Sequence record: NC_070982.1
Direction: 5' to 3' (one strand)
DNA from: Escherichia phage vB_EcoP-101114UKE3
DNA: 64,000 nt
Numbering within the stretch: the first letter of the stretch is position 1; the number at the start of each line of letters is the position of its first letter. Positions 43,300 through 61,452 of the stretch are shown in pieces. Below the pieces are notes generated by a model. It saw only the letters and a list, made by a program, of their open reading frames with translations. It did not search any database and was not told where the DNA came from. Position numbers and translations under genes: made by a program.

Positions 43300-43494
43300 T
43301 TAGATAACCTTGTGCTTATAGATGTTAGGGTTGTAGTAATGCAACCAGTTTATGTATTGTTTCTGTTCAAGGTAGTGTCTGCAATCATGACAAAAAGCAT
43401 GACCCAAACCTGTTTCCTCGTTCAGCTTGAAGTTGATAAGAAGCTTCTGCTTTTGACAGAAGCTACATGCTTTAGTGGGCTTCACGTAATGCAT
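43300..43494 (-). CDS. Small Cys/His-rich protein, possible zinc ribbon (about 64 aa)
   Basis: C-x2-C ... C-x2-C pattern; start uncertain because the ORF-track frame overlaps the ThyX-like 3' end and the RBS is weak. Confidence 0.25.
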   Translation of the reverse strand: MHYVKPTKACSFCQKQKLLINFKLNEETGLGHAFCHDCRHYLEQKQYINWLHYYNPNIYKHKVI

Positions 43495-44122
43495 CCCATG
43501 AGATTGGGAAAAGTTTACGAAGCTCTTCATCAACAGTTGATGCGAACACTCGTACTTCATACTGAGCATGGTCGGACAGTCGCTGACGACATAACTCTGA
43601 CCAGCCATATAAAGAACCTGTCCACACCCACTCAGTGATCATACCTTGAGGTAGAACGAATCGGGCTTGCTCTGGAGCAATAAACTTAATCAACTCATCA
43701 TATGACTCAAGAGCTGTTTCATATGCCCGATTAATCAGAACTAGTGCAGAGTTTTGCGCTCCCGTGGTGAGGAGATTCCCCGCACCTGCATGGAGGTCCG
43801 AAGGTCTTTCAAAAATCTCTTTAGGGATGAAGAGTTCAACTGCTCCATCTTTATACCGCCGGGACATTTCGTTCCACGAGAATCCAACTTGATGCTTGCC
43901 CAGCTGTCTCGCAATTGCGATTGGCGCTTTGCATCGGAAGCTAATTGTCGGATGGCGGAATGGTGTGACATGCTTTTCTCTGGCAAGGAACTTGATAAGG
44001 CGTTCATCTCGTTCATTTAACTCTCCTTCACGAGTAACCCCAAAGGAAACTCGAGCTGCATTAACAACAGATTTATCAGAACCCATTGCTTCAATTAGTG
44101 TTGCTTGTAATTGTTCGTTCAT
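43472..44122 (-). CDS. thyX: ThyX-like flavin-dependent thymidylate synthase homolog (216 aa), divergent
   Basis: ARVSFG, ARQ...NE-S-RRY and LPQG-x-T blocks fit the ThyX fold, but the RHR signature position reads KHQ. Confidence 0.5.
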   Translation of the reverse strand: MNEQLQATLIEAMGSDKSVVNAARVSFGVTREGELNERDERLIKFLAREKHVTPFRHPTISFRCKAPIAIARQLGKHQVGFSWNEMSRRYKDGAVELFIPKEIFERPSDLHAGAGNLLTTGAQNSALVLINRAYETALESYDELIKFIAPEQARFVLPQGMITEWVWTGSLYGWSELCRQRLSDHAQYEVRVFASTVDEELRKLFPISWDALREAH

Positions 44123-44136
44123 CCTTGAATTCTTCC

Positions 44137-44352
44137 TTAGTAATGAATCTTTTTATAAATCAGGTTGCTTCCACTTTCTGTTTCAATCCCTTTCTGGATT
44201 GTAATCTTAGAAGCACCGGTATTAGCAATTTTTAAAGCTCGTTTAAAGCGGCGAGCCTCTCTCCGTGTTGTGTATGAGGAGAAGCTAGGGATTGTACTAT
44301 CAAAATTAAACCACTTAACTACCCAAAAAGTAATCCAAGGTTTCTTTTCCAT
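44137..44352 (-). CDS. Small hypothetical protein (71 aa), member of a three-gene paralog family
   Basis: Shares W-x-W...TRREAR...KITI-x-K...Y-x-K-x-HY with 46217..46432 and 46432..46629. Confidence 0.45.
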   Translation of the reverse strand: MEKKPWITFWVVKWFNFDSTIPSFSSYTTRREARRFKRALKIANTGASKITIQKGIETESGSNLIYKKIHY

Positions 44353-44353
44353 A

Positions 44354-44629
44354 TTAAATACCTTTCAGAGCTGTATCTAAAAACGCACGGAGGTTTGATT
44401 CAGTTTGCATACCGGACAAGCTGTAGTGAGCACCACTGTTCATGTTAGGAACCACAAAGGCTGGGATACTGCGAACACCATATTCAATGGCTCGCTCTCG
44501 ACCATTACCTTCAGAGATATTTACTTCTTCAACTTCTACGTTGTAATCAGCTACAACTTTCTTAAACACAGGAGCCATAGCTGCACACGGAGCACAGGAA
44601 TTACTATAAAACTTAATTACTTTACTCAT
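44354..44629 (-). CDS. Thioredoxin-like protein with CAPC active site (91 aa)
   Basis: FYSNSCAPCAAMAPVFKKV resembles the thioredoxin WCGPC region; ATG at 44629 with AAGGA RBS. Confidence 0.6.
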   Translation of the reverse strand: MSKVIKFYSNSCAPCAAMAPVFKKVVADYNVEVEEVNISEGNGRERAIEYGVRSIPAFVVPNMNSGAHYSLSGMQTESNLRAFLDTALKGI

Positions 44630-44819
44630 TTTATTCCTTGTTAATAAACAGATTGATATGACGTTGGGTAGCAGGAACAACAATAAAAGATTTATACTGA
44701 CCTTTTGCTAAGTCATGAGCAATCTTCTTTGTCTGACTAAGACCCATTACACAGCCACTAACAATAATAGCATGTGCTTGTAGCTCTTCAGGTAGGTTTA
44801 GTTTCACTCTTTGGGTTCC

Positions 44820-45005
44820 TTATAGCATACAAAGAATAATAACAAGAGGTAGTGTTATAGCAAAATGTACCAGAACAACACTACCTAGCTTGATAGCTTT
44901 AACATCCTCTTCTGCTGGGTTTTCTTTAATTGCTAAATTTCGAGCTTTATATATAACAGTACCAACTATTAACGACCACACGGCCCACACAATCAGTGAA
45001 ATCAT
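44820..45005 (-). CDS. Small two-TM membrane protein (61 aa), tandem paralog of 45015..45194
   Basis: Two hydrophobic helices flanking a KENP-containing loop. Confidence 0.4.
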   Translation of the reverse strand: MISLIVWAVWSLIVGTVIYKARNLAIKENPAEEDVKAIKLGSVVLVHFAITLPLVIILCML

Positions 45006-45014
45006 ATCAAACCC

Positions 45015-45194
45015 TTATGCAGTCAACAGGTGGAGAAGGAAAGGAATGACAACAGAGAAGACTACCAGAGCAATGCTGCCATGTTTAATGGGTTTAGCGT
45101 CATTCGGGTTCTCTTTAAGCATCTGTTTCTGAGCTACATAAACGATACCGCCAACAAAAATTGCCCATACAGACCATACGATTGCTGAAAACAT
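45015..45194 (-). CDS. Small two-TM membrane protein (59 aa), tandem paralog of 44820..45005
   Basis: ATG at 45194 with AAGGA RBS; same helix-LKENP-helix layout. Confidence 0.4.
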   Translation of the reverse strand: MFSAIVWSVWAIFVGGIVYVAQKQMLKENPNDAKPIKHGSIALVVFSVVIPFLLHLLTA

Positions 45195-45257
45195 ACTCAT
45201 ATCCTTATAAAGAAGTTCGCCCCACCTCTTGAACAAAGAGACAGGGCGGAGGTTTGA

Positions 45258-45824
45258 TTAGTAAGACACATCACCACTGGAGTGGGACATGTTGCTCTTG
45301 ACGAAGTAACAGAACTTGCCAAGACCTTCATTAATTTCTTGAAGCATACTCTGGTCCACTGGATAGGTGCACAAGTCTGAATCAAACTCATCCATCTTCT
45401 CAATGATACACATAAGAGTCATGCACATGTCGGAAAGCATACCGTCCATGTCAAGATCAGCGTTACCTTCTCGGAACCAAGCATGACCTAAATAATTACT
45501 AGCAGTAGCATCCACTTTAACACAATGAAAGCGCATACGCTCTGCTATTCGGTCGCCTGCCTCACGAGCATAATCTTCTAGTTCATCGAACATACCATGA
45601 ACACCTTGGAAACCAGCTCCAGAGACGTTCCAGTGGTAGTTCTTTGCTTTGATGTGTAGAAGTTCAAGGTTAGCTTGCACACCACACAAGATGTGTTCTA
45701 AGCTGTTACCGCTAATCAGTTTATTCATTCCCTCAAGACGAGAGATAGAAGAGTCAGTAGCAGAGAATGGGTTGCTAGAACCCACTCGTGTTAGTTCTGG
45801 TAAGTCGAAGACATTATTATGCAT
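45258..45824 (-). CDS. Dps-like ferritin-fold protein (188 aa)
   Basis: KNYHWNVSGAGFQGVHGMFDELEDYAREAGDRIAERM matches the Dps pattern HW-x-V-x-G-x-F...H...F-x-E...D-x-IAER. Confidence 0.65.
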   Translation of the reverse strand: MHNNVFDLPELTRVGSSNPFSATDSSISRLEGMNKLISGNSLEHILCGVQANLELLHIKAKNYHWNVSGAGFQGVHGMFDELEDYAREAGDRIAERMRFHCVKVDATASNYLGHAWFREGNADLDMDGMLSDMCMTLMCIIEKMDEFDSDLCTYPVDQSMLQEINEGLGKFCYFVKSNMSHSSGDVSY

Positions 45825-46146
45825 TAGGTGCATCCCCTTCTAAGTTAGTTGAATTAGCTACATTACGAGCAATGTTATCCATGACCTGCTGTGTAATAAC
45901 AATGCAATTCTGAGGGTCTACTGATTTAGAACGCCCCATCTCAGGGTCATAGACTTTGACTCGCTTGGCTGTTGAGCCAGTAACTTGCAACACTTTGAGA
46001 AGATAGCCTTGGTTTCCAATAGACCATGCAACAACATCACGATTCTTGATATAACGACCAAGCATGTCACGATGATAGAACTGCTGCATAACTTTAGCTT
46101 TGCTAATCTCTTCAGATGGCGGGGCCACTTTACTCAAATCTAACAT
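45817..46146 (-). CDS. Hypothetical protein (109 aa)
   Basis: ATG at 46146 with AGGAGAG RBS; a near-copy of the TAATGTATA element lies about 40 nt upstream. Confidence 0.4.
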   Translation of the reverse strand: MLDLSKVAPPSEEISKAKVMQQFYHRDMLGRYIKNRDVVAWSIGNQGYLLKVLQVTGSTAKRVKVYDPEMGRSKSVDPQNCIVITQQVMDNIARNVANSTNLEGDAPNA

Positions 46147-46216
46147 AACTCTCTCCTGTTTCATACAATATTCTTATACTGTATATACATTTGAGAGTTA
46201 TCATATCTACTACCAA

Positions 46217-46432
46217 CTAGTAATAAACCTTGCTGGATATGAATCCAGCACTGTTATGGATATTTTCAATCCAACGATGAATCTCCACCTTTTCAGCGAT
46301 TCCTAAAGCTTTTGTAGCTTTTATAGTTTTCTTAGCAAGACGAGCCTCTTGTCTTGTGTTGAATAATTGAATACAATCACCACCAAGAGCTTTGTTAGCC
46401 CATTTAGTACGAACTGCCCATAATTTATCCAT
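46217..46432 (-). CDS. Small hypothetical protein (71 aa), paralog family member
   Basis: NTRQEAR and SSKVYY motifs shared with 44137..44352 and 46432..46629. Confidence 0.45.
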   Translation of the reverse strand: MDKLWAVRTKWANKALGGDCIQLFNTRQEARLAKKTIKATKALGIAEKVEIHRWIENIHNSAGFISSKVYY

Positions 46433-46629
46433 TAGTAATGTACCTTTCCGCTGATATAGAAACGACCTGATTTAAAGTCTTGAGCTTTGTGGATAGTGAT
46501 CTTATTAATTGTGCTTTCACAACTTAATAAGAACTTCTTATGAGCGCGAGCTTCTTGACGGGTATTCCTAATACCCATTGACTCTGTACCACTGCTCCAG
46601 TGAATACGAACTACCCAACGTCTTTTCAT
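46432..46629 (-). CDS. Small hypothetical protein (65 aa), paralog family member
   Basis: ATG at 46629 with GTGGAG RBS; NTRQEAR...ITIHK...SGKVHY. Confidence 0.45.
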   Translation of the reverse strand: MKRRWVVRIHWSSGTESMGIRNTRQEARAHKKFLLSCESTINKITIHKAQDFKSGRFYISGKVHY

Positions 46630-46643
46630 TGTTCCAAACTCCA

Positions 46644-46835
46644 CTATCTGTCAACCGATTTAGGGACAAACTGCATTACACAGACCTGACTACGAGGGAG
46701 ATTTATTTCACAAGCGGCTCTTCTCGTCTCAATCTTAACGCTAGAATCTGGACCAACGTTAGATATAAATACTCCCATAGCAAATGCCCCAACTACAAAA
46801 CCTATAGCTAAGTAAGTAGCTTTTTCTTCTTTCAT
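46644..46835 (-). CDS. Small membrane protein (63 aa)
   Basis: N-terminal hydrophobic helix; weak RBS. Confidence 0.35.
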   Translation of the reverse strand: MKEEKATYLAIGFVVGAFAMGVFISNVGPDSSVKIETRRAACEINLPRSQVCVMQFVPKSVDR

Positions 46836-46840
46836 CTTGG

Positions 46841-47374
46841 TTATACACCCTTAGATGCAACTACACCATTACTGCCGTTGTATCGACCCTTCACTGCATA
46901 AGAGTCATCACCAGCGTGAGAGTGTTCGAACATAACCATTTGACCAACACGCATCCCAGCACGAACTCGTAAGCTATGATTATGGGTAACGTTATGAAAT
47001 TCAAAGGTTAGTTTACTGCTGTTAAACCCTGCATCAGCCCAACCAGCATGGAGGTGGTTTAAACCACAACGAGCCATTGAGGAGCGAAGTACAAACAGGC
47101 TTGAGATGTTATCTGGAAGGTTAAACTCTTCCATTGAGTGCGCTAAGAAGAATTGCCCCGGAGTGATAACAATACCATCTTCAGGGATTTTTACTTCTTT
47201 CCACTTGAGGTTTTCTTTAGCATCAATGTCAACAATTCCGTCAGCCTGTTCTTCAACAAGGATAGTATCACCAATACGGATATCCACGCTAGCAGCGTTA
47301 ACATATTTATGCTCCGCATCTAAAAAGCCATTATCAATAACGCTGTGTAATTCTTGAGAACCTAAAAGACTCAT
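46841..47374 (-). CDS. dcd: dCTP deaminase / dUTPase-family enzyme (177 aa)
   Basis: SSMARCGL and GWADAGFNSSKLTFEF blocks typical of the dCTP deaminase family. Confidence 0.7.
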   Translation of the reverse strand: MSLLGSQELHSVIDNGFLDAEHKYVNAASVDIRIGDTILVEEQADGIVDIDAKENLKWKEVKIPEDGIVITPGQFFLAHSMEEFNLPDNISSLFVLRSSMARCGLNHLHAGWADAGFNSSKLTFEFHNVTHNHSLRVRAGMRVGQMVMFEHSHAGDDSYAVKGRYNGSNGVVASKGV

Positions 47375-48819
47375 GAGTTTCTGTTTCCTTGTACAGATGA
47401 TGCCAAATTATTAATCATGTTACGAGCTGTTTCACGAGATAGTGTAACACCTGCTAAGTTGTTATGAAGCTCACCAGATAGCTCACGAGCAGCAGCTCGA
47501 AGTTCTGTACCAAGTGTAGTATCGGAGTGAGCCAAACCATTACGACGACTATAAGGTCGAGGAGCTTCGTTAGCGTCATTAGCCAATGATGCAAAACCAA
47601 TATGAGCAGCTTCACGAGACGCTATAGTTGACACTCGATCTTCCGTAGGGGTTGGCAAATCACCAACTTCTACACGTTCTATATCACCAGCACGTAGACC
47701 CTGAACGACTGAGCTTACTGTTTCCCATGAACGACGAGAACGCTGTAAATCACCCATTGACGGAGAAGAAGCAGGTCGAACAGTTACTCCACCTGTATCA
47801 TGAGTGACATGCCATGTACGAGTATCCATTCCAGAAGAGCGTGCACTACCAAAACTGCCAGTGAAAGTGTCACGAGGTGCCATTGTAGGAGGAACTGCGA
47901 ATCTTTCCTGTTGCCAAGAATCGCGTCTGTTAGTTCCCGGAGTCCAAGGCTGCGTGATTGCTTCAGCACCTATAGTGGTTAATCCGCTAGACCATTCTGT
48001 CTGTAGGTTAACTTCCTCGTCCAGATAACTACGACCCCTTTCCTGAGGAATGTTTAATATAGTTTCCATCATCTTCAGGGTATAATGACGACGCTGATTC
48101 TGATATAAATTTACACCAGCCATAGGTCCAACTAAATCACTAATCAGGTGAACTTCTGGCTCACCGAAAGCTCCCATTGCAAGGTGCATATATTCGGTAG
48201 AACTGCTATAAACTGCAACAGTTGCTTCAGGCCACTTCTTGTGAACATACTTCATTTCACGACCAGATACCACAGGAATGTCACGAGTGTATGACATTGC
48301 AAACAAACCTTCGTTTGACACATACATGTCATCAAGAGACATGAACCCCTGACAGATCATAGGAAAGCGACGGCTTAAAGTATCCATATCCAAAGGTAGA
48401 TTAATCATCATCTGGATTTTAACTTGATCAATCTCAATTTCCAGAATCTCTTGGAAAGTGAAAAGTGCTTCAGCGTAAGTTGTCCCACTAACAGGCTGAA
48501 CTAGGCGAGATGTAGTTTGAAGCCCTTTACTCTCTGTCCAAGACAAGAAGTTGTCAAGGAACAGTGCAGCATTCATCACGTTAGCAGGGTTGTTTTCCTG
48601 ACGGGTGTTCCAACGAAACCCTCCTTGGACTAGGAAGATATCCACATCATTCGGAGTTCGGTTCTGGAAGAACGTATCACGGATAGCACCACCTGCAATA
48701 ACAGGGTAGATACCATCAGGAACTACGTTGTCTCTGATCAGATTGCGAATCAGATCAAGCCCTACGCTGAGGGCTTCTCCTTCTTGAAGGTTTAATTCAG
48801 ACAATGGAATCTTAATCAT
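47371..48819 (-). CDS. Nucleotidyltransferase-fold protein with long S/T/R/G-rich C-terminal region (about 482 aa)
   Basis: GG-x13-DVD pattern (VIAGGAIRDTFFQNRTPNDVDIF) fits Pol-beta-type NTase; ATG at 48819 sits 2 nt after the exonuclease stop. Confidence 0.5.
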   Translation of the reverse strand: MIKIPLSELNLQEGEALSVGLDLIRNLIRDNVVPDGIYPVIAGGAIRDTFFQNRTPNDVDIFLVQGGFRWNTRQENNPANVMNAALFLDNFLSWTESKGLQTTSRLVQPVSGTTYAEALFTFQEILEIEIDQVKIQMMINLPLDMDTLSRRFPMICQGFMSLDDMYVSNEGLFAMSYTRDIPVVSGREMKYVHKKWPEATVAVYSSSTEYMHLAMGAFGEPEVHLISDLVGPMAGVNLYQNQRRHYTLKMMETILNIPQERGRSYLDEEVNLQTEWSSGLTTIGAEAITQPWTPGTNRRDSWQQERFAVPPTMAPRDTFTGSFGSARSSGMDTRTWHVTHDTGGVTVRPASSPSMGDLQRSRRSWETVSSVVQGLRAGDIERVEVGDLPTPTEDRVSTIASREAAHIGFASLANDANEAPRPYSRRNGLAHSDTTLGTELRAAARELSGELHNNLAGVTLSRETARNMINNLASSVQGNRNS

Positions 48820-48821
48820 TT

Positions 48822-49370
48822 CTACATTTTCCAATTTAGAGATGGGGGATTCTTATAATCAAATCCAGCCATTTGGCAAAGACACATGTAAACCTTAACT
48901 GTCAAGTTAACGTCTTGCTCACAATACGTGAACATGTCTTCAGTGAATGCATCCCATGCTTCTTCCTGTTCACCATAATCACCCTTCAGCTCTCCCAGAA
49001 ATTCGCCCCATTGCTTGAGGCCATGACCGCGAGGGCCATGTCTAGGGTCGCCTTTGGGGTATTCTGGACTATCACCAATACGGTCAGGCTTGAGATATCT
49101 ACTCAGGCACAAAGTATCGAAGACGTTAAAGCGAAAAGGTATCACATGAGAATAAAACTTAAACAAAGCAGGAAGGTCAAAATCAATAATATTGTGACCT
49201 ATTACTACATCAGCTTCTTTCAGTTTGTGTAGTGCTTCTTCAATTTGGTGAGGGCGATACCCCCACCGCTCTCCAGATAATACATCAAATATCCAGATAC
49301 ACCAGACATTCTGAATACCATCATAGAGATTATCACCCTCGATATCAAACGCATACAGTTTCTTTACCAC
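48822..49370 (-). CDS. DnaQ-like 3'-5' exonuclease, stand-alone proofreading domain (182 aa); GTG start
   Basis: Exo I FDIE, Exo [13 protein letters not shown], Exo III YCEQD; GTG at 49370 preceded by GGAGG. Confidence 0.65.
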
Positions 49371-51189: not shown

Positions 51190-51396
51190 TTAGTAAAACG
51201 ATCGTATTTCTTCCCACACATCATCTTGCAAGTTTCTAAAACCCTGCAAGGTTTGCTTTGTTCTGTGAATAAATTCTTCAGAGTGCTTATCAGGTGTGAG
51301 CATACTGACAAACTTTTCATAGCGATTAATCTTCCACCGCATCTTCAAGTAGTCAGATTCCAGCTTTCTTAACTTCTGCCTGTCAGTTACTGTCAT
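51190..51396 (-). CDS. Small hypothetical protein (68 aa)
   Basis: ORF-track frame 51190..51492 trimmed to the ATG at 51396. Confidence 0.35.
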   Translation of the reverse strand: MTVTDRQKLRKLESDYLKMRWKINRYEKFVSMLTPDKHSEEFIHRTKQTLQGFRNLQDDVWEEIRSFY

Positions 51397-51814
51397 CCTT
51401 CTCACCTGCCAGATATGCTGTCCAGTCACCAGATTCAACCAGAACATCTTGTTCTTCGTCGATGTGATAAATCCACGCTTCCACAGTTTCACCGCTGTCC
51501 AATAATACTGGAATCAGTGTACGCTTGTAAAAGGTGTATGGGTTATCATTACCACGATGACCTTCCAGACCGTCATACGGACCTTCCAGACCAGCTTGGG
51601 TTGTTTCAAAGACTTCTACACGAACAGGCTTACCATTGCTGTCATGCTCCAAAGATACACTTGGGAAGTATGCTGTGCAATACTGATACAGGTTACAGTT
51701 GTTTACTGTCCACCCTTCACCAATAGACACACCACCTGCACGAGCATTGATAGCGTGGTTGTGTTGACCTTTACGAAGAGAACCATACGTTGCAACTAAT
51801 ACTTTATCAGACAT
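51383..51814 (-). CDS. AIG2 / gamma-glutamyl cyclotransferase-like protein (143 aa)
   Basis: N-terminal YGSL motif (VATYGSLRKG) with downstream acidic residues; RBS AAAAGG. Confidence 0.55.
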   Translation of the reverse strand: MSDKVLVATYGSLRKGQHNHAINARAGGVSIGEGWTVNNCNLYQYCTAYFPSVSLEHDSNGKPVRVEVFETTQAGLEGPYDGLEGHRGNDNPYTFYKRTLIPVLLDSGETVEAWIYHIDEEQDVLVESGDWTAYLAGEKDDSN

Positions 51815-51818
51815 TACA

Positions 51819-52016
51819 TTACCTTTTGTTTAAAATTTCTTTTGTACAAGAAGTCCCGTTACACACGAGAACTGTTTGAGTTATAGAATCGACAACTGTT
51901 ACATGGCTGCCGCATTGAGTTATGATTTGACCTCTCCCTGAATCTTTAGAGATGCATTCATCAGCGGCGATCGCTGACACACTGAATAAGGAGAGGAAAA
52001 ATAGAATCTTTTTCAT
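51819..52016 (-). CDS. Small secreted cysteine-rich protein (65 aa)
   Basis: Signal peptide MKKILFFLSLFSVSAIA followed by about 48 residues with 4 Cys. Confidence 0.45.
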   Translation of the reverse strand: MKKILFFLSLFSVSAIAADECISKDSGRGQIITQCGSHVTVVDSITQTVLVCNGTSCTKEILNKR

Positions 52017-52022
52017 GGCTGC

Positions 52023-52439
52023 TTACCAATCATGTTGGAAACCAGAATATCCAGAGAAGATGATTGATCGGATTGGCTTTTCAGGGAATCCTTCAAAACA
52101 TCCCTTAATGGCTTTCTTGGTTTCATCAGAAATTGACTCTTTTTCACCAAACCAATATTCTTCAAAAATATCAGAGAAGATATAAGTTCGGTATCTTTCC
52201 AAGTCATAAAAACCTTCCACTGCACTTGTAACAGCTCTACTAATTACACTTGAAGCTACAGGAAATAAGTCACCGTGTTCCAGAAACAAGCACCAACGAT
52301 CAAAGAGAGGAATCTCTTCATCTTTCAGAAGACTTTCTAACTCTTCCTTTGCCTCTTTCTTGTGCTTCTCAAAGAGGTTTTTGGAATACTCTACATCTAA
52401 GATACGACTTTTAAACATATCCAGTTTATTATTAACCAT
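52023..52439 (-). CDS. Hypothetical protein (138 aa)
   Basis: RBS AGAGG. Confidence 0.45.
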   Translation of the reverse strand: MVNNKLDMFKSRILDVEYSKNLFEKHKKEAKEELESLLKDEEIPLFDRWCLFLEHGDLFPVASSVISRAVTSAVEGFYDLERYRTYIFSDIFEEYWFGEKESISDETKKAIKGCFEGFPEKPIRSIIFSGYSGFQHDW

Positions 52440-52496
52440 TTTACAACCTCTAGTTAAATTCGAACTAGCCTCCTCTTTCGAAGAGGCTAAAGCAAA

Positions 52497-52682
52497 TTAT
52501 TCTACTTCGAAGTGTTTGATCACACCAGTCAGTACATCAGATTGGAATGTACCCACTAGCTCTGTACCTCGGAAAAAGTTAACACTTGTTCCAAGTGATT
52601 CAAAGCGATCTGCTTGAATGTCCAGAGATTGAATATTTCCTTCTGCTGACATTGTACGAAACATGATTGTGTATTTATTCAC
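52497..52682 (-). CDS. Small hypothetical protein (61 aa), GTG start
   Basis: GTG at 52682 with AAGGGAG RBS, overlapping the upstream stop. Confidence 0.35.
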   Translation of the reverse strand: MNKYTIMFRTMSAEGNIQSLDIQADRFESLGTSVNFFRGTELVGTFQSDVLTGVIKHFEVE

Positions 52683-52921
52683 AGACTCGTTACTCCCTTA
52701 TCTGCTTGTGCAATTGCGATGATACGCTCAGCACATTCCATTGAATACTTATCACCTCGTTTGAGGAAGGTGATGATTGCAGAGAACTGATTACCAATCA
52801 TTCTCTTATTTGTGATACCAAACTCTTCACAGAGTTGGTTGATAGCTTTACGAGAGCCTACAATCAGAGGCTCTTTTTCTTCGGTCATTCCACGGCTGAT
52901 CAAATCTTCGATAGACAACAT
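52679..52921 (-). CDS. Small hypothetical protein (80 aa)
   Basis: ORF in the operon. Confidence 0.4.
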   Translation of the reverse strand: MLSIEDLISRGMTEEKEPLIVGSRKAINQLCEEFGITNKRMIGNQFSAIITFLKRGDKYSMECAERIIAIAQADKGVTSL

Positions 52922-52947
52922 TACAAATTCCTTTTTGTTTAATTTAA

Positions 52948-54183
52948 TTACAGAGTTACTGCTACTTCGCTACCTTCAACATTGACAGACTCTAACTTGC
53001 GAGGGTTATGAATCTGGACTGGATTGACCGGAACGTTCCAACCACTGCGGTAGAAGTTACGACCATCACAGAACAAAATGACATTGGCAGACATTGCATT
53101 CGGTTGAAGGTTGTTGTGGACGTGACGGATATCTGCAATCCAGTAACCACGAGACAAAGTGTAACCAGTAGGTGCATTACGAATAGTTTGAGTATTCATC
53201 TGACCTTCTAGCTGCATTTCTTCAGGAACTACATCTACCGAATCAACCGGCTGTGCTACTTGTCCTTCCAGTGCAAAGTTTTCATCATCAGCACTTTCAA
53301 TATCATCCACTAACTCACCGTCTCCATCTTCAATCGGAGTCTGGTAAACCACTTTATACTGAGGAGTATAGAGAGGGTTCTGAGCTTTAACAAACTCAAG
53401 AATGTTATGACGGTAGGTATCCAGAGTTGTACCAGTCAGGCCCGGTGCTGTATTAACTTCCAGTACCCACGCTTCTTGACCTTTGGTGATAATATCAACT
53501 GCACCGAAATCCAGACCCATTGATTCAACAGCTTTCACTGCATTGATCAGAGAGGCGTCATTCGGAGCATCTGTGAAGGAGCTTGAGTAAACCCAGCCAG
53601 TGTGGTGATTACGAATATCTTCACGATAGTTAGGGTCTTCGCGATAACCATTGCGACGAATCTTCTTCTGAACATAGGTGATTACACCTTTGAACACATG
53701 GACACGCCACTCACGACGTGGGCCTTGAATGCCTTTAGTGTACAGTTCAGCTCGACCAAGACCATCACCCGGTTCTACAACAACAATGCCCGAACCAGAG
53801 TGACCAGTCAGCTCATGGCGCTCATACACAATATTACCAGTGTTTGACCACTCTTGAGCAGTCTCTTGAACATCTGTGTATTCCACAGTTTTAACACCTG
53901 CTTGGTCCATCACGCTGAAAGCACGACGTTTGTTCGCTGCCATATGTAAGGCTGCGGTACGGTTAAGGACGGTTGCAGAACCAAAGAATGATTCAGGATA
54001 GCGACGGTTCCCGTAGTTAACAACCACATCACCTTCACGAGAACGCCAGCGGCTATTCTCTGAAAGAAGACCCATCACGTTAGCATTGATGCGTTCATCA
54101 CGGATAGTATCACTGATAGCAGATACTAGAGCGTTAACAGAATCAGACGGGCCATACGGAAGAACACGGATACGAGTAGTCAT
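52948..54183 (-). CDS. ATP-grasp ligase (411 aa)
   Basis: Glycine-rich GHSGSGIVVV loop and C-terminal VLEVNTAPGLTG motif typical of ATP-grasp enzymes. Confidence 0.7.
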   Translation of the reverse strand: MTTRIRVLPYGPSDSVNALVSAISDTIRDERINANVMGLLSENSRWRSREGDVVVNYGNRRYPESFFGSATVLNRTAALHMAANKRRAFSVMDQAGVKTVEYTDVQETAQEWSNTGNIVYERHELTGHSGSGIVVVEPGDGLGRAELYTKGIQGPRREWRVHVFKGVITYVQKKIRRNGYREDPNYREDIRNHHTGWVYSSSFTDAPNDASLINAVKAVESMGLDFGAVDIITKGQEAWVLEVNTAPGLTGTTLDTYRHNILEFVKAQNPLYTPQYKVVYQTPIEDGDGELVDDIESADDENFALEGQVAQPVDSVDVVPEEMQLEGQMNTQTIRNAPTGYTLSRGYWIADIRHVHNNLQPNAMSANVILFCDGRNFYRSGWNVPVNPVQIHNPRKLESVNVEGSEVAVTL

Positions 54184-54185
54184 TT

Positions 54186-54416
54186 TTAGATACCTTTTAG
54201 TTTAAGAATTTCGTTACGACAGGATTGAATTTTAGCTTCGATTGCCCAATACTCAGCGAACATTTCGTCTTCTTGGGCATCGCTTGGAGAGTCGATTAAG
54301 TTAAAAGCAAACGGATACAGCTTTCGCTGCTCCGTTACCAGTTGTTGAAGTCGGAGTTGTTGATACTCCAGCATTGTCAGGTGAGGCTTAGCTCCCTTGC
54401 TTGACATGAGGCTCAA
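54186..54416 (-). CDS. Small hypothetical protein (about 76 aa), possible TTG start
   Basis: TTG at 54416 with AAGGGG RBS; the first ATG is at 54407. Confidence 0.35.
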   Translation of the reverse strand: MSLMSSKGAKPHLTMLEYQQLRLQQLVTEQRKLYPFAFNLIDSPSDAQEDEMFAEYWAIEAKIQSCRNEILKLKGI

Positions 54417-54621
54417 CTTTAATCCCCTTCATTTTAACATAGTCAGCCAACACGTTATTGATAACGGTTGGAAAAGGGATTTCTACTGGAGAGTCAACCA
54501 GCTTCCCAATACCTTCTTGCATCCACTTCTGGATTGCTCGGAGGTTATCACATCCTGTGCTTGTCATCGGAATACGGCGGGTAGTTACCACGTTATCCAA
54601 CATCAGTTTACGAACTTCCAT
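54388..54621 (-). CDS. Small hypothetical protein (77 aa)
   Basis: RBS AAGAGG. Confidence 0.4.
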   Translation of the reverse strand: MEVRKLMLDNVVTTRRIPMTSTGCDNLRAIQKWMQEGIGKLVDSPVEIPFPTVINNVLADYVKMKGIKVEPHVKQGS

Positions 54622-54632
54622 AACTATACCTC

Positions 54633-56666
54633 TTAGTGTTTACCTTTACAGTAATCTGAATTACAGATCACCCTGTTTTCTTTGTTCAGTGAGCAAGTTT
54701 CTGCATCACGCCACGGAATTTGTTTATAACAGACTGCACAAAACCCAATTGAAGTCCAGAGGGCTTTTGTAAACTCAGCTGTTCGTTGTCCATCGTAACT
54801 GACAACTGTTTTTCGGAGAGAGGTTGACTTTTCTGGAAATGTCTCCGCTTTCTCAGCGGGTACCTCCTTTGGGGCATTCTTTGGACCATAAACAGAGATG
54901 GCATAAGTATCACCACCACGTTTTTCCAAATACGAATTAGGAACATCTGCAAGTGTGATGTCCCCTGAACGTTTTGCTGAGCTGACCATTACAATCATAC
55001 GGCTAAGCATACGTTCATCAACACGAACAGCTACTTCAGGACGACGTGGGTTGGTTGTGTCTACTGCTTTAGTCCAAATATAACCTTCAGATAGAGTAAC
55101 ATTCTTTACTTTATCTTTGATTTCTTTGGAGCAGATATAACAAACGTCTTCACCACGAAGTTTACTCATTTCGTTGTCAAACTCGAAATCAGTCTTGACT
55201 TCACCACAGATAGCACATACACCCAAAGGCACATCTTCTTCCTCTTCAGAGGTTTTAGATAACGCTTCGAAGCATTCTGGATGCCAGTATGCCTGATAAG
55301 CAAACACAGCCTTACGAGCATCTTTCCAGTCAATGTGCTTATCACAACCACCACAGTCACCATGAGAGTGAGATTCCCAGAACTTACGAGTGACTTCTAC
55401 ACCATTCTTAGTGATGAAGGAGTCCTCTGCATCAAAAGGGATATCATCATCAAAATCAGCAGTAGTGCTTTGAGGCTCCTTATCTGTAGCATCAACAAAC
55501 AGCCCTGAAGTTAGTACGAGGCGAATCATACTGTCCACTTCGGAGATACAAGCAATCGTCCCGCGATATACTACCTTTGGGTTTTCAAGAGCCTTAAGAT
55601 ATTCATCTTTGGCTACGTTGTGAACATCCCCTTCGACATACTCTTGAGCTTTATCATCGTAGATGTAACCAACCATCTTACCACGATCTGTGTTGTTATA
55701 AGCATGGAACTCGTGAGGAATAATATCCACACGACCATCACGACGATAAGGAAGACCGCGATCGGCAGCCAGTTTGTTCTGGTCTTCAATCGCTTTACGA
55801 CGACGAATGTCTCCGCTTGTCACGCCGGGCTTGTCGTCTTTGTTTCCGTAAATGTCGCTTGTGCTGCTGCTTGATTTGTTTGTCTGTTGGTTCTGATAAA
55901 GAGAGGAGTTCGAGTAATAGCCGCCCCAGCGACTCGTTACCGTAAAAACCGGAAGCGTGTGCTCCACCTCTTGAACCAGAGTCATACGACTGTTAGACAC
56001 ATCAAAGATATACTCAGTTCCCACTTTACATTCGAAGTGGTCATTGATATGGTTCTTATGGGACTTAGAACGCTCTAAAATCCACATAAGCATAGCTTCT
56101 TCAGAAGCTCCAAACCAATCCAAACCACAGCGGGCTAGGTGGAAAGGACGCTCATCATTACGGATAATGTGAAGTGTGTTGTCTTTAGCATCATGCCAAA
56201 TCAAAGTGAATGCACCATCCAGTTTTTGGATAGTCTCTGCTGCTCCAATGGTGTTAATTGAGTGGCAGATGTTTTCACTATCAACTTCGAAACGCTTACT
56301 GTCAGGAAGGAGATCTTGATCTAACAGGGTTCCATTATGAACCAGAGTAATATCCCCGTGAGTAAATGGGTGAGCATTTCGAGCATTGACAGCCCCACGA
56401 GTGGCATGTCGGCTGTGACCAACAATCCACGAAGGAGGAACTACGTAGTTCGTAAGCCCTTTGGTAATATTTGTATATTCTGTCTGGAGCATAAAAGCAT
56501 AAGAAGGAAGAGCTTCTTTATAAGAGAAGACTTGCTTTTCACCTTTACGCTGACCAAACACACCAGTTGAGTGCTGTCCACGGAAAACACCAGCATACAG
56601 AAGTTGGTTGAAAATGTCCAAATCTGCTGAGGTCATGTTGCCGCCAGCTAATACGATACCACAAAT
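54633..56666 (-). CDS. Ntn-hydrolase / class-II glutamine amidotransferase-like protein fused to a CxxC-rich C-terminal region (about 677 aa); predicted AUU start
   Basis: The frame upstream of the first ATG reads stop-K-I-CGIVLAGGNM..., giving the GAT-II N-terminal Cys; ATT at 56664-56666 has AGGTGG 8 nt upstream; RHATRG and NAHPF blocks; at least five C-x2-C pairs in the C-terminal third. Confidence 0.65.
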   Translation of the reverse strand: MCGIVLAGGNMTSADLDIFNQLLYAGVFRGQHSTGVFGQRKGEKQVFSYKEALPSYAFMLQTEYTNITKGLTNYVVPPSWIVGHSRHATRGAVNARNAHPFTHGDITLVHNGTLLDQDLLPDSKRFEVDSENICHSINTIGAAETIQKLDGAFTLIWHDAKDNTLHIIRNDERPFHLARCGLDWFGASEEAMLMWILERSKSHKNHINDHFECKVGTEYIFDVSNSRMTLVQEVEHTLPVFTVTSRWGGYYSNSSLYQNQQTNKSSSSTSDIYGNKDDKPGVTSGDIRRRKAIEDQNKLAADRGLPYRRDGRVDIIPHEFHAYNNTDRGKMVGYIYDDKAQEYVEGDVHNVAKDEYLKALENPKVVYRGTIACISEVDSMIRLVLTSGLFVDATDKEPQSTTADFDDDIPFDAEDSFITKNGVEVTRKFWESHSHGDCGGCDKHIDWKDARKAVFAYQAYWHPECFEALSKTSEEEEDVPLGVCAICGEVKTDFEFDNEMSKLRGEDVCYICSKEIKDKVKNVTLSEGYIWTKAVDTTNPRRPEVAVRVDERMLSRMIVMVSSAKRSGDITLADVPNSYLEKRGGDTYAISVYGPKNAPKEVPAEKAETFPEKSTSLRKTVVSYDGQRTAEFTKALWTSIGFCAVCYKQIPWRDAETCSLNKENRVICNSDYCKGKH

Positions 56667-56743
56667 TTTCTAATCCACCTGAAGGGTAAACCCTTTCATC
56701 TAATTAACCTTTAAATGCGCCCTGTATAAGAGCGCCCGTTGTG

Positions 56744-57844
56744 TTACAGCAGTCGTTCTAATTGCATTTCCAGATGGTCTGGAATATAACCAGTGACGTT
56801 ATCATCACTGCTACCTGATTCACGCATCAATGCAAACATGTGACGAATTTCACGAACCGTTGCGATTCGAGTGCTTTCAATCTGAGGGGTGTAGTAGGTC
56901 ATGATCTCTTCGTAGACACTGTTGGCATTACCGCGCACATATCCCAAGAAACCATAGAAGTCATTCATATCACGTAAGTTGATAAGGACTTCACCATCAG
57001 GGCCAGTCTGTTGCACACGAACACGACCAACCAAAGTTACAGATTGCTCACGACAGAAGAGAATATCACGAGCAAGACGATACCCTTCAGTGAGATCACT
57101 GTCTCTTGGAGTATAGTCTAGGGGTAGATGTTGAATCATAGGAGCGAAGCGCAGCTCATTCAACTTCTCAACATAAGCTTCATTGTCTAAATCTGCATAT
57201 TCAACAGCCAGTTTCTTGAGAACCAAGAAGCGGTTGACCAGATTCAGAAGTTGGCTCTTTTTCCACTTCGGCTCTGAGATACGGAACTCAACAGAACCAA
57301 ATTGAGATAGAGGCAAAAGATTAAGGGAGGTGTATTTATCCCAGCTATTAACAAGAGAGTGGAAGAAAGCTTCCCCGTCTCGGTTGAACGCTGACGAAGC
57401 ATTCATAACTTGTGCTTGAACGACAGCAAAAGCTGGACAGAAGTTGCTACGATAGCGATGGTATCCAGAACATTTGAACATCATCTTTTCATAGAACGTC
57501 CATCCAAGAATAACTTTCTTAAGGATATTACTATCAGCGTCACGCATATCCATATGAACGTGAGTGGAGCAGCGCCAAGTTCCCTCGGCTCCAGAATCCT
57601 GTACTGCTTCACTCAGATTGTTAATAGCACGAAGTAATTCTTCACCGTTGTAAGGTCGTGCACATACTAATTCACAACCATCACGAAGAGAGCCATCTTC
57701 AGTACAAACCCACATATCAGCGTCAATGTCAGTTGTACCTTCGACTTCTAACTCAATACCAACACCACACTGAAAAGCAATACTTGGATGCGGTTCAGAT
57801 AAGCGAGGGTTACGGTATCCAAAAACTTGTGCTACGGTTGTCAT
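56744..57844 (-). CDS. Amidoligase-like (carboxylate-amine ligase, glutamine synthetase-like fold) protein (366 aa)
   Basis: GVGIELEVEG near the N-terminus and a downstream STHVHMD motif; genomic context with GAT-II-like and AIG2-like genes. Confidence 0.45.
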   Translation of the reverse strand: MTTVAQVFGYRNPRLSEPHPSIAFQCGVGIELEVEGTTDIDADMWVCTEDGSLRDGCELVCARPYNGEELLRAINNLSEAVQDSGAEGTWRCSTHVHMDMRDADSNILKKVILGWTFYEKMMFKCSGYHRYRSNFCPAFAVVQAQVMNASSAFNRDGEAFFHSLVNSWDKYTSLNLLPLSQFGSVEFRISEPKWKKSQLLNLVNRFLVLKKLAVEYADLDNEAYVEKLNELRFAPMIQHLPLDYTPRDSDLTEGYRLARDILFCREQSVTLVGRVRVQQTGPDGEVLINLRDMNDFYGFLGYVRGNANSVYEEIMTYYTPQIESTRIATVREIRHMFALMRESGSSDDNVTGYIPDHLEMQLERLL

Positions 57845-58467
57845 AATGATTCCACCAACTCTACATTATATGATGACAGGTCTGAAGAAATATGCTTGAA
57901 CTTCTCCAGAAGGTTTAAAGATTGACGACCATTGTCGCCATAACCAGCTTCAAGAAGCACGTTTCCAACGTAAGCCCCTTTGTAATAAACTTTTCCATCG
58001 ACAGGATTGATATAGATGAAACGAGTAACCAACCCTTCAAACTCTGGATTAAACAGGTTATACACCAAATCACCCGGAATCGAACGTCCGAGAGAAGGTG
58101 GAGTACCACGAAGTTTATTCCCCATCAAGCCTTTAGCTCGCTGACGAACAGGGTTGATATGGGTCCAGCTCACCACGTTATTACCATGCTGAAGGTATCC
58201 TACATCTGGAGACTCCAGAATGAGGCTGTGATCAAACACTGGGATATTACTAACAATCTGACGTTCAAACTGACCTTCGGAGTTTTTAGTCCAGCGTTCC
58301 GCCTCAAACACTAAAGACATTTCAGCGTCGTGTGAGTAGTCGTCGATATCAAAGTTACCTTGCTGACGAACATCAAGCACATATAGAGGGAGGTTTTTAC
58401 CATCAGGTGATCGCTGAGCAATCCATGTTCCACAATAATAGTGTTGAAAATCTCTTAACAAGCTCAC
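57841..58467 (-). CDS. Hypothetical protein (208 aa), GTG start
   Basis: GTG at 58467 with AAGGTGA RBS; no early in-frame ATG. Confidence 0.45.
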   Translation of the reverse strand: MSLLRDFQHYYCGTWIAQRSPDGKNLPLYVLDVRQQGNFDIDDYSHDAEMSLVFEAERWTKNSEGQFERQIVSNIPVFDHSLILESPDVGYLQHGNNVVSWTHINPVRQRAKGLMGNKLRGTPPSLGRSIPGDLVYNLFNPEFEGLVTRFIYINPVDGKVYYKGAYVGNVLLEAGYGDNGRQSLNLLEKFKHISSDLSSYNVELVESL

Positions 58468-58476
58468 AATATCACC

Positions 58477-59283
58477 TTATACAATCTGGAGTTTAGAGGA
58501 GAATTTATCTGCTTCTTTAACATCGTTACTGTTGATGATGTTGTGAAGCTTTTCAATTGGAAGGCGAGAGTGAAGTGACATCAATACTTCCATATCACAG
58601 CCTTGAACAACCTTATCAACTTGCTCATAAACAAACTTGCGGGTTGACTTCTCGCCAATCCAGAAGTTAGAAAGAGAACGATATTCAATACCGTAATCCT
58701 TGTAACGAATGGCAGAAGCCTTTCCGTATAACTCTTTACGACGAGTGTCTTTATCCATGATTACAGCTGGCAAGGACAGGAAATAATCACACAACACACC
58801 CAACATCATTTGAGTTTGTCGAGTAATCTCTAAAGTCCCGGAGACACCAAGGTGCACATGACCCCCAGCAGTACGCAAACCCTTATTAGTTGCGACCGGT
58901 GAAGGGTTCTTTTGTCCAGTGAAGGCATTGAAATCAGGAGTACAACCAAATACAAAGGCTGACGGATGGAAAGATTCAAGCTCTTCTGAAGTGAACACAT
59001 GAGAGCTAATCCCAAGTGCTGCCTCCATGCCACGTTCATTGAGAACTTTGTTAGTCAGATCAATACCACGCTGAATGTTATCATCAAACGCTTCAAACCC
59101 TTCCTGTGGGTTAATATCAAACTCGGCCAGAACGTTGTCTTCTTGAAGACGAACATCAGGAGCCAGATCAATTTTATTGTCTTTAGAACAGCCCAGCTTA
59201 CCAGCCACAGAGGTGATAATACCGGAAGCAGTACGAACAAACATTTCAGGGTCAGAGCCAATAAGGAAAGCGCGCTTAGTCAT
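58477..59283 (-). CDS. Second amidoligase-like protein candidate (268 aa)
   Basis: ATG at 59283 with GGAG RBS; LIGSDPEMFV and GGHVHLG motifs parallel the E-rich and HVH motifs of 56744..57844. Confidence 0.35.
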   Translation of the reverse strand: MTKRAFLIGSDPEMFVRTASGIITSVAGKLGCSKDNKIDLAPDVRLQEDNVLAEFDINPQEGFEAFDDNIQRGIDLTNKVLNERGMEAALGISSHVFTSEELESFHPSAFVFGCTPDFNAFTGQKNPSPVATNKGLRTAGGHVHLGVSGTLEITRQTQMMLGVLCDYFLSLPAVIMDKDTRRKELYGKASAIRYKDYGIEYRSLSNFWIGEKSTRKFVYEQVDKVVQGCDMEVLMSLHSRLPIEKLHNIINSNDVKEADKFSSKLQIV

Positions 59284-60226
59284 TGTAATACTCCACGAGT
59301 TCATCAAAAAGGGAAACAACACGAGCACCAGCTTCTTCTGGTGTCATTGAGGAAGGTACTGCTTGCATCAGACGTTCGATAAAACTTTGAACAGTAATTC
59401 TGTCCATACGCTGATCTAATACTTCTCGCTTGTGACCTGCACAAGTTGACCAGAGACGTAACCACTCACTCATACTCTCATAATGGTCAGGGTCTTGGTC
59501 ACGACGACGTGCCATACGACGGAGAACTCCATCATTATGGTTTCGTACATAACCATCTCGGTTGTCATCAACACCGAATACATTCTGAACCCATACGTTT
59601 TCAGAAAATTCATCAGTGGTGCAAATTAATGGCAGAAATGCAATTGCACTCATGTCGCCATCAAAATAAGTCGCTGCTGACTCATCGGTTGAGTCTACGT
59701 CATTACTATAACACCAGCGACCAAAGAAGTTACGACTTAAACCAGCTAAGCGTAGAGCTAAACCGATTCGTTGTCGCTTAAGCAACTCTTCCTTGTCTTG
59801 TACGCCTTCCTGAAGGAACTCCATTCCATTAAAATCACCATCCAAATAGCTACGGATGGTCATTAGTCCAGTAAACACCTTGTCTGCTGGATGGTTTCGA
59901 AGGTTCACGGCAATAGAGTTCACCGAAGTGACAGAGAACATATCTTTATAGCAAGACATTGAGTTAAAAATGTCTGTTGCTTCAACTAAAGCTCTTTCGA
60001 TATCTTTAGCTGGTACGCCATAAAAATTGTGAGGCCAGAAGTTAATAACTTCAATTTCTGAAGTTCTGTCACGAAGGCTTGTTCGGTTACGACTTTCACC
60101 GTTAATGTCTGTAACAGAATACATGTGCATACAGTTAAAAGTACCAAAGCAAGCTCTTCCTTTGAACACTGACTCACCGAAATCCTCTGCCGGTGTTACC
60201 GGAGCAATCGATGCGGAGATTGACAT
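59276..60226 (-). CDS. Hypothetical protein (316 aa)
   Basis: RBS AGAGG; part of the operon. Confidence 0.5.
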   Translation of the reverse strand: MSISASIAPVTPAEDFGESVFKGRACFGTFNCMHMYSVTDINGESRNRTSLRDRTSEIEVINFWPHNFYGVPAKDIERALVEATDIFNSMSCYKDMFSVTSVNSIAVNLRNHPADKVFTGLMTIRSYLDGDFNGMEFLQEGVQDKEELLKRQRIGLALRLAGLSRNFFGRWCYSNDVDSTDESAATYFDGDMSAIAFLPLICTTDEFSENVWVQNVFGVDDNRDGYVRNHNDGVLRRMARRRDQDPDHYESMSEWLRLWSTCAGHKREVLDQRMDRITVQSFIERLMQAVPSSMTPEEAGARVVSLFDELVEYYND

Positions 60227-60234
60227 ATTCGCCT

Positions 60235-61452
60235 CTATTTATTAAAGAATAATTTTTCCATAATGGTTTCCCACTCTTCTGAGGGGAGGGTTGAGAACCC
60301 GTTTCCGTGAAGCCTGTTTGTCATGCAACTAATAATATTGTACATGTTGTAGCTTCGGGTGGATTCTGTTCCATTGTTCCAGTTATAACCGAAAACAATT
60401 TTATCGAAGGAGGTTTTATCCGTAGTTACTTCTCGGATGAACTCAACCAAGAGCGATTTCTCTGTGATGACCGCACGTTCACCATCTGGCAGATTACAAT
60501 ACTGAGGAAGAAGAATTGGTAAGAACATCGAATTGTTCACTCGACAATCACGAACATCTTCACTGCGATAGATTAGGCTTGAGAAGTCTTCATCACGCAG
60601 GTGTCCTTCACCTTCAGTGTATTCACACTGTCGCCATTTGGTCTGACGAGGTTCAATCATTGTACTACCAACGCCTACTGTATACAGAGACGCTTGGAAG
60701 ATACACGAGTCGTAATCATTCCCTGTTAAAGCAACTTGCTCATTGCCGAACACATCCACTGAAGAGTTAATCAGTCGGCTGAATGCAAGAGAGGCTAGTG
60801 GAGACCAACCTTTCTTATACATCTTGTTCAGCATTTCATACACAGCAGATTTTTCATCATCTGTATAGAATGTACGATTCAGCATCAGATAGAACAGAGC
60901 GCGATCAGCAGGACAACCATCAGTACAAACACCCATGAATCCTACTTCATGCCATACCAGACATGAGTCAGAATCTTTATCCATGAATGCTTCAAAGGCT
61001 TCCATTACAGCCCTGTCAGTAACATCAGGACGGTTGTTTTCTTCTGCCCATGTTTCTACATGAGAAGGAGGACGAGGGTCTCCATTCTCCACCCCTTCGC
61101 GGAAATATTGAGTGGTAATAGGCTTTTTATCACCATAACGTTTTACACCATAAGCGGGAAGGTGTGTACCAGAGTTCCAGATGTACTTAATTTCGGACAT
61201 AGGCATCATGTTTTCGAGAACGTTCTCTTCAGCAGTGCCTTGACGAACCATCATATTTTCACTCCACACCTTAATGCGGATATTCCAGCCGTAGTTGCTG
61301 TCATACGTGTTATAATAATCAGGATCACCATCTTCATCTTCATCATAATCACCACCCTGATAGTAACCTGCTTTCAGGAAACCATAACAAGGAGGCCAGA
61401 CGGTTACAACATCATCTGATTCTTTCCAGCTTTGAAGTGTTACAGGGAACAT
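60235..61452 (-). CDS. Hypothetical protein (405 aa)
   Basis: RBS AAGAGG; first large gene of the operon. Confidence 0.5.
   Translation of the reverse strand: MFPVTLQSWKESDDVVTVWPPCYGFLKAGYYQGGDYDEDEDGDPDYYNTYDSNYGWNIRIKVWSENMMVRQGTAEENVLENMMPMSEIKYIWNSGTHLPAYGVKRYGDKKPITTQYFREGVENGDPRPPSHVETWAEENNRPDVTDRAVMEAFEAFMDKDSDSCLVWHEVGFMGVCTDGCPADRALFYLMLNRTFYTDDEKSAVYEMLNKMYKKGWSPLASLAFSRLINSSVDVFGNEQVALTGNDYDSCIFQASLYTVGVGSTMIEPRQTKWRQCEYTEGEGHLRDEDFSSLIYRSEDVRDCRVNNSMFLPILLPQYCNLPDGERAVITEKSLLVEFIREVTTDKTSFDKIVFGYNWNNGTESTRSYNMYNIISCMTNRLHGNGFSTLPSEEWETIMEKLFFNK

Follow-up and report, generated by a model that had tools for sequence, protein, structure and literature searches.

The window analysed here is a stretch of 64,000 nucleotides of Escherichia phage vB_EcoP-101114UKE3 (NC_070982.1). 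A single unbroken open reading frame (ORF) spans 54633..56666 on its minus strand and encodes, as read from its translation, a class-II, or N-terminal nucleophile (Ntn), glutamine amidotransferase (GAT) of 677 amino acids (aa) (54636..56666, stop codon 54633..54635) with an OB-like domain and three predicted metal-binding modules. An OB-like domain and treble-clef zinc modules are thus carried by a GAT-II enzyme that belongs to a known but uncharacterised cassette of podoviruses. The C-terminal 262 residues would form a non-catalytic arm of the beads-on-a-string type, with small metal-binding domains held on flexible linkers. Judged from alignments, the conservation of its cysteines is the strongest evidence that this feature is real, and the decisive one. 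The reading favoured here, if only by a little over an even chance, is that the arm comprises three structural-Zn2+ modules that would dock the glutaminase onto its partner ligases or onto a macromolecular substrate.

Architecture and conservation of the C-terminal arm

The protein contains 17 cysteines, 12 of which lie after residue 430, within the C-terminal 262 residues. Four C-x2-C motifs are found there, all encoded on the minus strand: CGGC (residues 438-441, 55355..55344), CAIC (484-487, 55217..55206), CYIC (509-512, 55142..55131) and CAVC (643-646, 54740..54729). Two further ligand pairs are H462-x2-C465 and C668-x4-C673, and the six pairs together define three putative Cys4/Cys3His metal sites. 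The original prediction, made from the letters alone, had described at least five C-x2-C pairs in this region. The four named motifs exist, and four is also the strict count; the fifth, given as C...C-x2-C, is absent as such, the last pair having the C-x4-C spacing, and the pair at H462 had been overlooked. The C-terminal arm is likewise real, but the start at 55350 proposed for it (54633-55350) severs the codon of the first cysteine (55355..55353).

The motifs are unlikely to be accidental. At least four CxxC were obtained in about 7 of 10,000 shuffles of the C-terminal 262 residues (~0.07%), and other long ORF stretches in the window never contain more than two. Across 60 homologues with a mean column identity of 31%, C438, C441, C465, C484, C487, C509, C512, C643, C646, C668 and C673 are invariant. 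All 12 ligand positions, including the histidine at 462, are invariant in the 30 close relatives (41-64% identity), in which C658 and H435 are also invariant and H433 nearly so. Distant relatives have a second C-x2-C at a spacing matching position 462/465.

Structural models were obtained with AlphaFold2 from the 60-sequence alignment, and the C-terminal 266 residues were also modelled alone. The mean predicted local distance difference test (pLDDT) score was 85.4 for the full protein and 90.5 for the C-terminal 266 residues alone. The predicted template modelling (pTM) score was 0.44-0.46, a low value indicating that the domains are not packed against one another. The GAT-II/Ntn glutaminase domain (aa 1-240, 55947..56666; minus strand, as are all parts of the gene) comes first. 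After it come a linker predicted to be disordered (aa 241-283, 55818..55946) and a helix plus five-stranded barrel of OB-fold-like topology (aa 284-394, 55485..55817). The modelled barrel itself occupies aa 312-392, and a helix separates its strands 3 and 4. A second linker, acidic and disordered (aa 395-415, 55422..55484; net charge -8, pLDDT <50), carries a conserved DD-I-P-F motif, in which D407, D408, P410 and F411 each reach a conservation of 90% or more within the close clade.

The arm proper begins with module 1 (aa 416-476, 55239..55421), in which C438, C441, H462 and C465 are the conserved ligands, the pLDDT is about 90 or higher and the signature is T-R-K-x-W ... C-x2-C-x3-I-x-W. Module 2 (aa 477-527, 55086..55238) has the ligands C484, C487, C509 and C512, four cysteines invariant in the 60 sequences, and a long helix comes after them; the model shows a knuckle after strand 481-483, and helix 510-526 opens with the second pair. 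A small alpha/beta domain predicted by AlphaFold2 (aa 528-595, 54882..55085), present in the close clade only, and a further disordered linker (aa 596-617, 54816..54881) lead to module 3 (aa 618-677, 54636..54815), with the ligands C643, C646, C668 and C673. This spacer between modules 2 and 3 measures 107-159 aa in close relatives and 28-97 aa in distant ones. The protein is acidic overall (net charge -18), as are modules 1 (-3) and 2 (-5), and module 3 is basic (+4). An hhalign comparison shows module 1 to be homologous to module 3 (probability 98%, E 2.5e-13). Both carry the signature G-x2-V-T-K-x2-W...C-x2-C-x3-I-P-W...C-x2-C, and they stem from the duplication of a single family-specific module.

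Several zinc-ribbon modules fused to a hydrolase had been proposed at first sight, and three metal modules are indeed predicted; their modelled fold is treble-clef-like and not that of a ribbon. In both AlphaFold2 models, the first ligand pair of each module forms a knuckle, and the second pair sits where a helix begins (463-475, 510-526 and 671-675), its ligands coming from the first helix turn. The structural neighbours of the modules are zinc domains of this class. In the models, the modules thus adopt a treble-clef arrangement; a classical zinc ribbon, which has both ligand pairs on beta-hairpin knuckles, does not fit these helical second pairs. The structure modelling suggested as a check on the prediction supports separate mini-domains, and the accompanying domain search returned no Pfam family at threshold for the modules.

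Searches against known families gave little more. In Pfam, LIM, DZR and FYVE all scored below threshold for the arm; the LIM matches reached 17.0 and 18.8 bits against a gathering score of 22.9, remained sub-threshold in 16 of 30 homologues, and LIM membership was rejected. Profiles of the arm matched only LIM sequences in the PDB, weakly, and a Foldseek search of the arm model against the PDB returned nothing with E <0.2. A DksA/TraR-type finger, suggested by the CxxC-x3-IP motif, was dropped because Pfam gives it no support. The signature T-K-x2-W ... CxxC-x3-I-P-W is specific to this GAT family, and the module 3 profile found 57 matches among 1.84 billion representative proteins, essentially all of them members or fragments of the same family. 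The arm belongs to a common structural class, in a variant specific to this family, and represents a domain family missing from Pfam.

The number of modules varies between phages. Among 120 homologue clusters, three CxxC-(~20)-CxxC units were counted in 95, two in 14 and four in 2, and in two clusters that apparently have none the three units are encoded by the next ORF. In these two metagenomic relatives, the arm is a separate ORF that directly follows a truncated GAT. In one (L005, 9947-11736), the break is at the acidic linker, which may be a natural split; in the other (L006, 6386-8373), the break falls inside module 1 and is probably a frameshift or an assembly error. In a set of 80 related viral loci, the GAT has three modules in 12, one C-terminal module in about 33 and none in about 33 (372-406 aa). 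The one-module enzymes bear the same module type as here, T-x2-E-W...CxxC...CxxC. One zero-module phage was examined, and it retains the ligases, the ATP-grasp protein and the gamma-glutamyl cyclotransferase (GGCT) of the cassette. The arm is dispensable in these related phages and, since module number varies while the cassette enzymes are kept, it is accessory to the chemistry and expandable.

The glutaminase domain and the start of the gene

The enzyme matches Pfam GATase_6 with 53.7 bits, against a curated cut-off of 27, and phrog_4736 with an E-value of 1e-183. Searched against the PDB with phmmer as a single sequence, the GAT domain gave no match, and a profile was required. The domain has the glutaminase fold, and its profile aligns with GlmS 67-112, a region that includes glutamine-binding and oxyanion residues; the GlmS set is Arg73, Thr76, Asn98-Gly99 and Asp123, and in this family R86, T89, N111, G112 and D129 are invariant in the 60 sequences, D129 being the probable equivalent of Asp123 by motif position. 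The N-terminal domain therefore seems, from its sequence, to retain the residues needed for hydrolysing glutamine or a gamma-glutamyl amide. Together with a catalytic cysteine that, given the ATT start, would come first in the mature protein (M-C-G-I-V), these data support the first description of the protein as an Ntn/GAT-II-like enzyme.

PHROG 4736 and the public records name the protein L-glutamine-D-fructose-6-phosphate aminotransferase or simply aminotransferase. Identity with GlmS was rejected, as Pfam detects no SIS domain and the NCBIfam glmS models, whose cut-offs are 418 and 381 bits, give scores of 33.7 and 41.5 respectively. The GlmS name in GenBank and PHROG is a mislabel.

The gene start given at 56666 proved correct. 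The codon there is ATT (56664..56666), directly 5' of the TGT codon of the catalytic cysteine (56663..56661), and a Shine-Dalgarno-like AGGTGGA, invariant in the alignments of relatives, lies 7 nt 5' of it (56674..56680). An in-frame TAG at 56672..56670 closes the frame, which reads TAG AAA ATT TGT GGT; since only AAA and ATT remain ahead of TGT, the ATT is the sole start that places cysteine second. The mechanical ORF list begins the gene at the ATG at 56636. The ten codons 5' of this ATG encode CGIVLAGGN, the canonical Ntn amidotransferase N-terminus, which matches the N-terminus of nearly all homologues. The ATT start is kept in ECBP2, SU7 and phages with about 40% GAT protein identity. Among the 80 viral loci, ATT precedes the cysteine in 11, with unrelated leaders, and TTG in 2. 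Initiation at ATT is what the Shine-Dalgarno sequence and this conservation point to, and the frequency of non-AUG starts suggests selection for weak or regulated initiation. Such starts are a cause of systematic mis-annotation: of the 120 homologue clusters, about a dozen are called from a downstream Met and lack the catalytic cysteine.

Over bases 54400-56900, the window matches Escherichia phage vB_EcoP-101114BS3 at 100% identity, IME267, Bas86/87 and SU7 at 98-99.9% and ECBP2 at about 90%. These are all Gordonclarkvirinae (phiEco32-like podoviruses of the C3 morphotype), and the window is from an E. coli phage of this group. The GenBank record of Bas87 annotates this same coding sequence (CDS), 2034 nt long.

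The leader of the gene has features of its own. Its nucleotides, TAGATGAAAGGGTTTACCCTTCAGGTGGATTA(G/T)AAAATT (56664..56705, minus strand), are almost invariant even between phages that share only about 40% identity in the GAT protein. It contains a conserved mini-ORF of nine codons, ATG AAA GGG TTT ACC CTT CAG GTG GAT TAG (56670..56699, minus strand), in frame with the GAT. In some relatives, its TAG is replaced by TAT, and gene callers lengthen the ORF to 'MKGFTLQVDY..CGIV'. The mini-ORF could be a propeptide, a device for termination-reinitiation coupling or an RNA element. Read-through of the amber codon by a phage suppressor tRNA was rejected, as no tRNA is found in the window. Two paired substitutions were seen in a leader hairpin; folding energy gives no support to a regulatory hairpin, with z-scores of -0.5 to +0.5. 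A possible promoter element specific to these phages, or else a processing site, is the motif TTTAAA(T/G)GT, which occurs about 25-45 nt 5' of the GAT start in divergent phages and here at about 56708..56718.

The surrounding cassette and the role of the arm

The GAT gene belongs to a conserved cassette at 51383..61452 on the minus strand, delimited by Pfam and PHROG matches and by gene order, that adjoins replication genes. In order, it comprises 405-aa and 316-aa unknowns, a COOH-NH2 ligase type 2 (58477..59328), a 208-aa unknown, an Amidoligase_2 (PF12224; 56744..57844) directly upstream of the GAT, the GAT itself, a 77-aa DUF7195 protein immediately downstream (PF23825, E 3e-19; 54388..54621), a 76-aa ORF, a RimK-like ATP-grasp protein of 411 aa (52948..54183), small ORFs and the GGCT (51383..51814), all on the minus strand. 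The two ligases, the GAT-II enzyme, the ATP-grasp protein and the GGCT are co-linear, as in cassettes of the phiEco32 type. The same gene order was found in SU7, Bas87, Salmonella phage SE131, a contig of a Bacteroidales metagenome-assembled genome (presumably phage-derived) and other metagenomic phages. The adjacency of amidoligase and GAT holds in every context examined, and Amidoligase_2 is likely the synthetase partner of the glutaminase. The 405-, 316- and 208-aa proteins have no PDB, Pfam or NCBIfam match and for this reason do not reveal the substrate.

Some parts of the neighbourhood deserve a separate description. At its C-terminus, the ATP-grasp protein bears an additional region (aa 336-402) with a match to phrog_20552, a different PHROG whose function is unknown. 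Between the small genes and the GGCT, at 51819..52439 (minus strand), lie two ORFs that have no equivalent in the CDS annotation of SU7. One encodes 138 aa; the other encodes 65 aa, including five cysteines and an N-terminus that resembles a signal peptide. Farther away, the region 43472..48834 (minus strand) encodes an ordinary FAD-dependent thymidylate synthase, ThyX (123 bits, cut-off 88); at the corresponding positions, Bas87 has an annotated dCTP deaminase and a 487-aa 'nucleotidyltransferase', a group that the BASEL authors suspect to be linked to the unexplained resistance of these phages to restriction-modification (RM) systems.

The name 'peptidoglycan modification cassette' comes from the literature, where it is a prediction only (PMC5498523; PMC11945000), and superinfection exclusion has been ascribed to the cassette there on the same predictive footing. 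In SU10, GATase, ATP-grasp and GGCT-like proteins were detected by proteomics among the early gene products. In the papers on the cassette that were read, no mention of the zinc-finger arm or of the OB-like domain was found.

In the mechanism proposed here, the sites C438/C441/H462/C465, C484/C487/C509/C512 and C643/C646/C668/C673 would hold metal, most likely structural Zn2+, and the OB-like barrel and arm would occupy the place that a fused synthase domain has in classical GAT-II enzymes. The arm would dock the glutaminase on Amidoligase_2, the second COOH-NH2 ligase, the RimK-like ATP-grasp protein and possibly DUF7195, or on their macromolecular substrate. Docking would deliver ammonia, or amide hydrolysis, to where the ATP-dependent ligases of the cassette work. 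The first suggestion of a role in substrate recognition or in nucleic-acid or protein binding survives in part: docking on a protein or substrate is mildly preferred, with nucleic acid as a rival ligand. The overall acidity of the protein and of modules 1 and 2 favours protein partners.

DUF7195 offers a lead towards such a partner. It lies downstream of 12 of 12 three-module GAT genes, 1 of about 33 one-module genes and none of about 33 zero-module genes, counts that come from a hidden Markov model built from the three-module clade only and are phylogenetically confounded. The extra zinc modules may have DUF7195 as their partner or substrate, which is a lead and not a proof.

Among the alternatives, the one that fares best, though it is unlikely, holds that the OB-like barrel and zinc fingers bind phage DNA or RNA and that the cassette amidates or peptide-decorates a nucleobase and not peptidoglycan. 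The OB/S1 resemblance of the barrel and the basic character of module 3 keep a nucleic-acid ligand in play. According to the literature, the RM resistance of Gordonclarkvirinae is unexplained, and amidoligase and GATase genes have been linked to thymidine-hypermodification clusters. Against DNA modification, the literature also reports a LUZ24-like phage with the same cassette whose DNA is cut by 11 of 16 restriction enzymes; moreover, the ThyX of the window is ordinary and none of the cassette's enzymes was recognised as base-modifying. In its fuller form, barrel and arm would bring the glutaminase and its three ATP-dependent ligases to nucleic acid, and the cassette would be a new pathway for amide or peptide hypermodification of phage DNA or RNA. 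This idea is slightly less probable again; if true, it would explain the RM resistance of the Gordonclarkvirinae. A weaker variant of it has the arm recruit the small DUF7195 protein, which would serve a new protein tag encoded by the phage as carrier or substrate.

It is also improbable, to a degree somewhat beyond that of nucleic-acid binding, that the arm is a regulatory or sensing element, with no docking function, through which zinc, the redox state or the binding of a partner, for example, would gate the glutaminase intramolecularly. In the classical enzymes GlmS and PurF, the glutaminase is inactive until the acceptor domain is loaded; no acceptor domain is fused here. Cysteine-rich sites are redox-sensitive in principle, and the flexible acidic DDIPF linker could fold back on the enzyme. 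However, no module is confidently placed against the glutaminase domain in the models (pTM 0.44), and a copy number of 0 to 4 would be unusual for a precise intramolecular switch.

Iron is a still poorer candidate, and a redox role through rubredoxin-like Fe(Cys)4 or Fe-S centres has little to recommend it. Module 1 of relatives often shows the pattern CxxC-x20-CxxC with a knuckle of the 'CxxCG' form, which is rubredoxin-like, and Fe-S clusters are carried by PurF of B. subtilis and by glutamate synthase. In the arm, however, the four ligands of each site fall within about 30 residues, in separate mini-domains, with no three- or four-Cys motif bridging modules; one ligand is histidine throughout the close clade, the structural neighbours are zinc domains, and no redox enzyme was recognised in the cassette. 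Finally, a chance cysteine-rich tail, disulfide-bonded or non-functional, or a separate gene is barely credible despite the two metagenomic relatives with the arm on its own ORF, because the ligands are invariant in 60 sequences with a shuffle probability of ~7e-4, stable disulfides are unlikely in a cytoplasmic protein expressed early, and the ORF is continuous in the window and in all close phages, where the possibility of a separate gene that the original prediction had raised against itself did not materialise.

The cassette that contains the arm is conserved in many podoviruses, including the therapy-relevant E. coli Kuravirus and Suseptimavirus, Pseudomonas LUZ24-like phages and many marine phages, and since 2009 its function (cell-wall modification, superinfection exclusion) has been a matter of prediction only. 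The glutaminase has a separable, conserved OB-plus-zinc-finger arm whose copy number varies with lineage and tracks the presence of DUF7195. The arm is a concrete handle for finding the target of the cassette and overturns nothing. In addition, a widespread GlmS mis-annotation is corrected and a domain family outside Pfam is defined.

Comparison with known systems

Among zinc fingers, the treble-clef domains LIM, RING, PHD and FYVE are close relatives in kind. The first finger (C-x2-C-x20-H-x2-C) agrees with the LIM pattern, C-x2-C-x16-23-H-x2-C-x2-C-x2-C-x16-21-C-x2-C/H/D, but the spacer here consists of 18 residues and a long helix, whereas that of LIM domains has 2 residues. RING, PHD and FYVE domains have a cross-braced binuclear site, which is absent from the arm.

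The GAT-II enzymes GlmS, PurF, AsnB, GltS and EgtC differ in their SIS, PRTase, PP-loop synthetase or FMN domains, none of which is present here. Compared with these classical enzymes, the phage protein has an OB-like barrel and three metal-binding modules in place of the fused domain, and its synthetase partners are encoded by separate genes. An analogy may be drawn with MurT/GatD, in which a glutaminase and a separate ATP-dependent ligase amidate a peptide carboxylate, and MurT carries a Cys4 zinc ribbon. The likeness is by analogy only: GatD is a class-I (triad) GATase and MurT a Mur ligase, and no match indicating a relation in sequence or fold turned up, no further test having been made. 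Another close system is the amidoligase cassette of the phiEco32, LUZ24 and RIO-1 type, reportedly treated by Iyer and colleagues in 2009 and by Hardies and colleagues in 2013. Gene content and order are the same, and the GAT described here is the GATase of that cassette.

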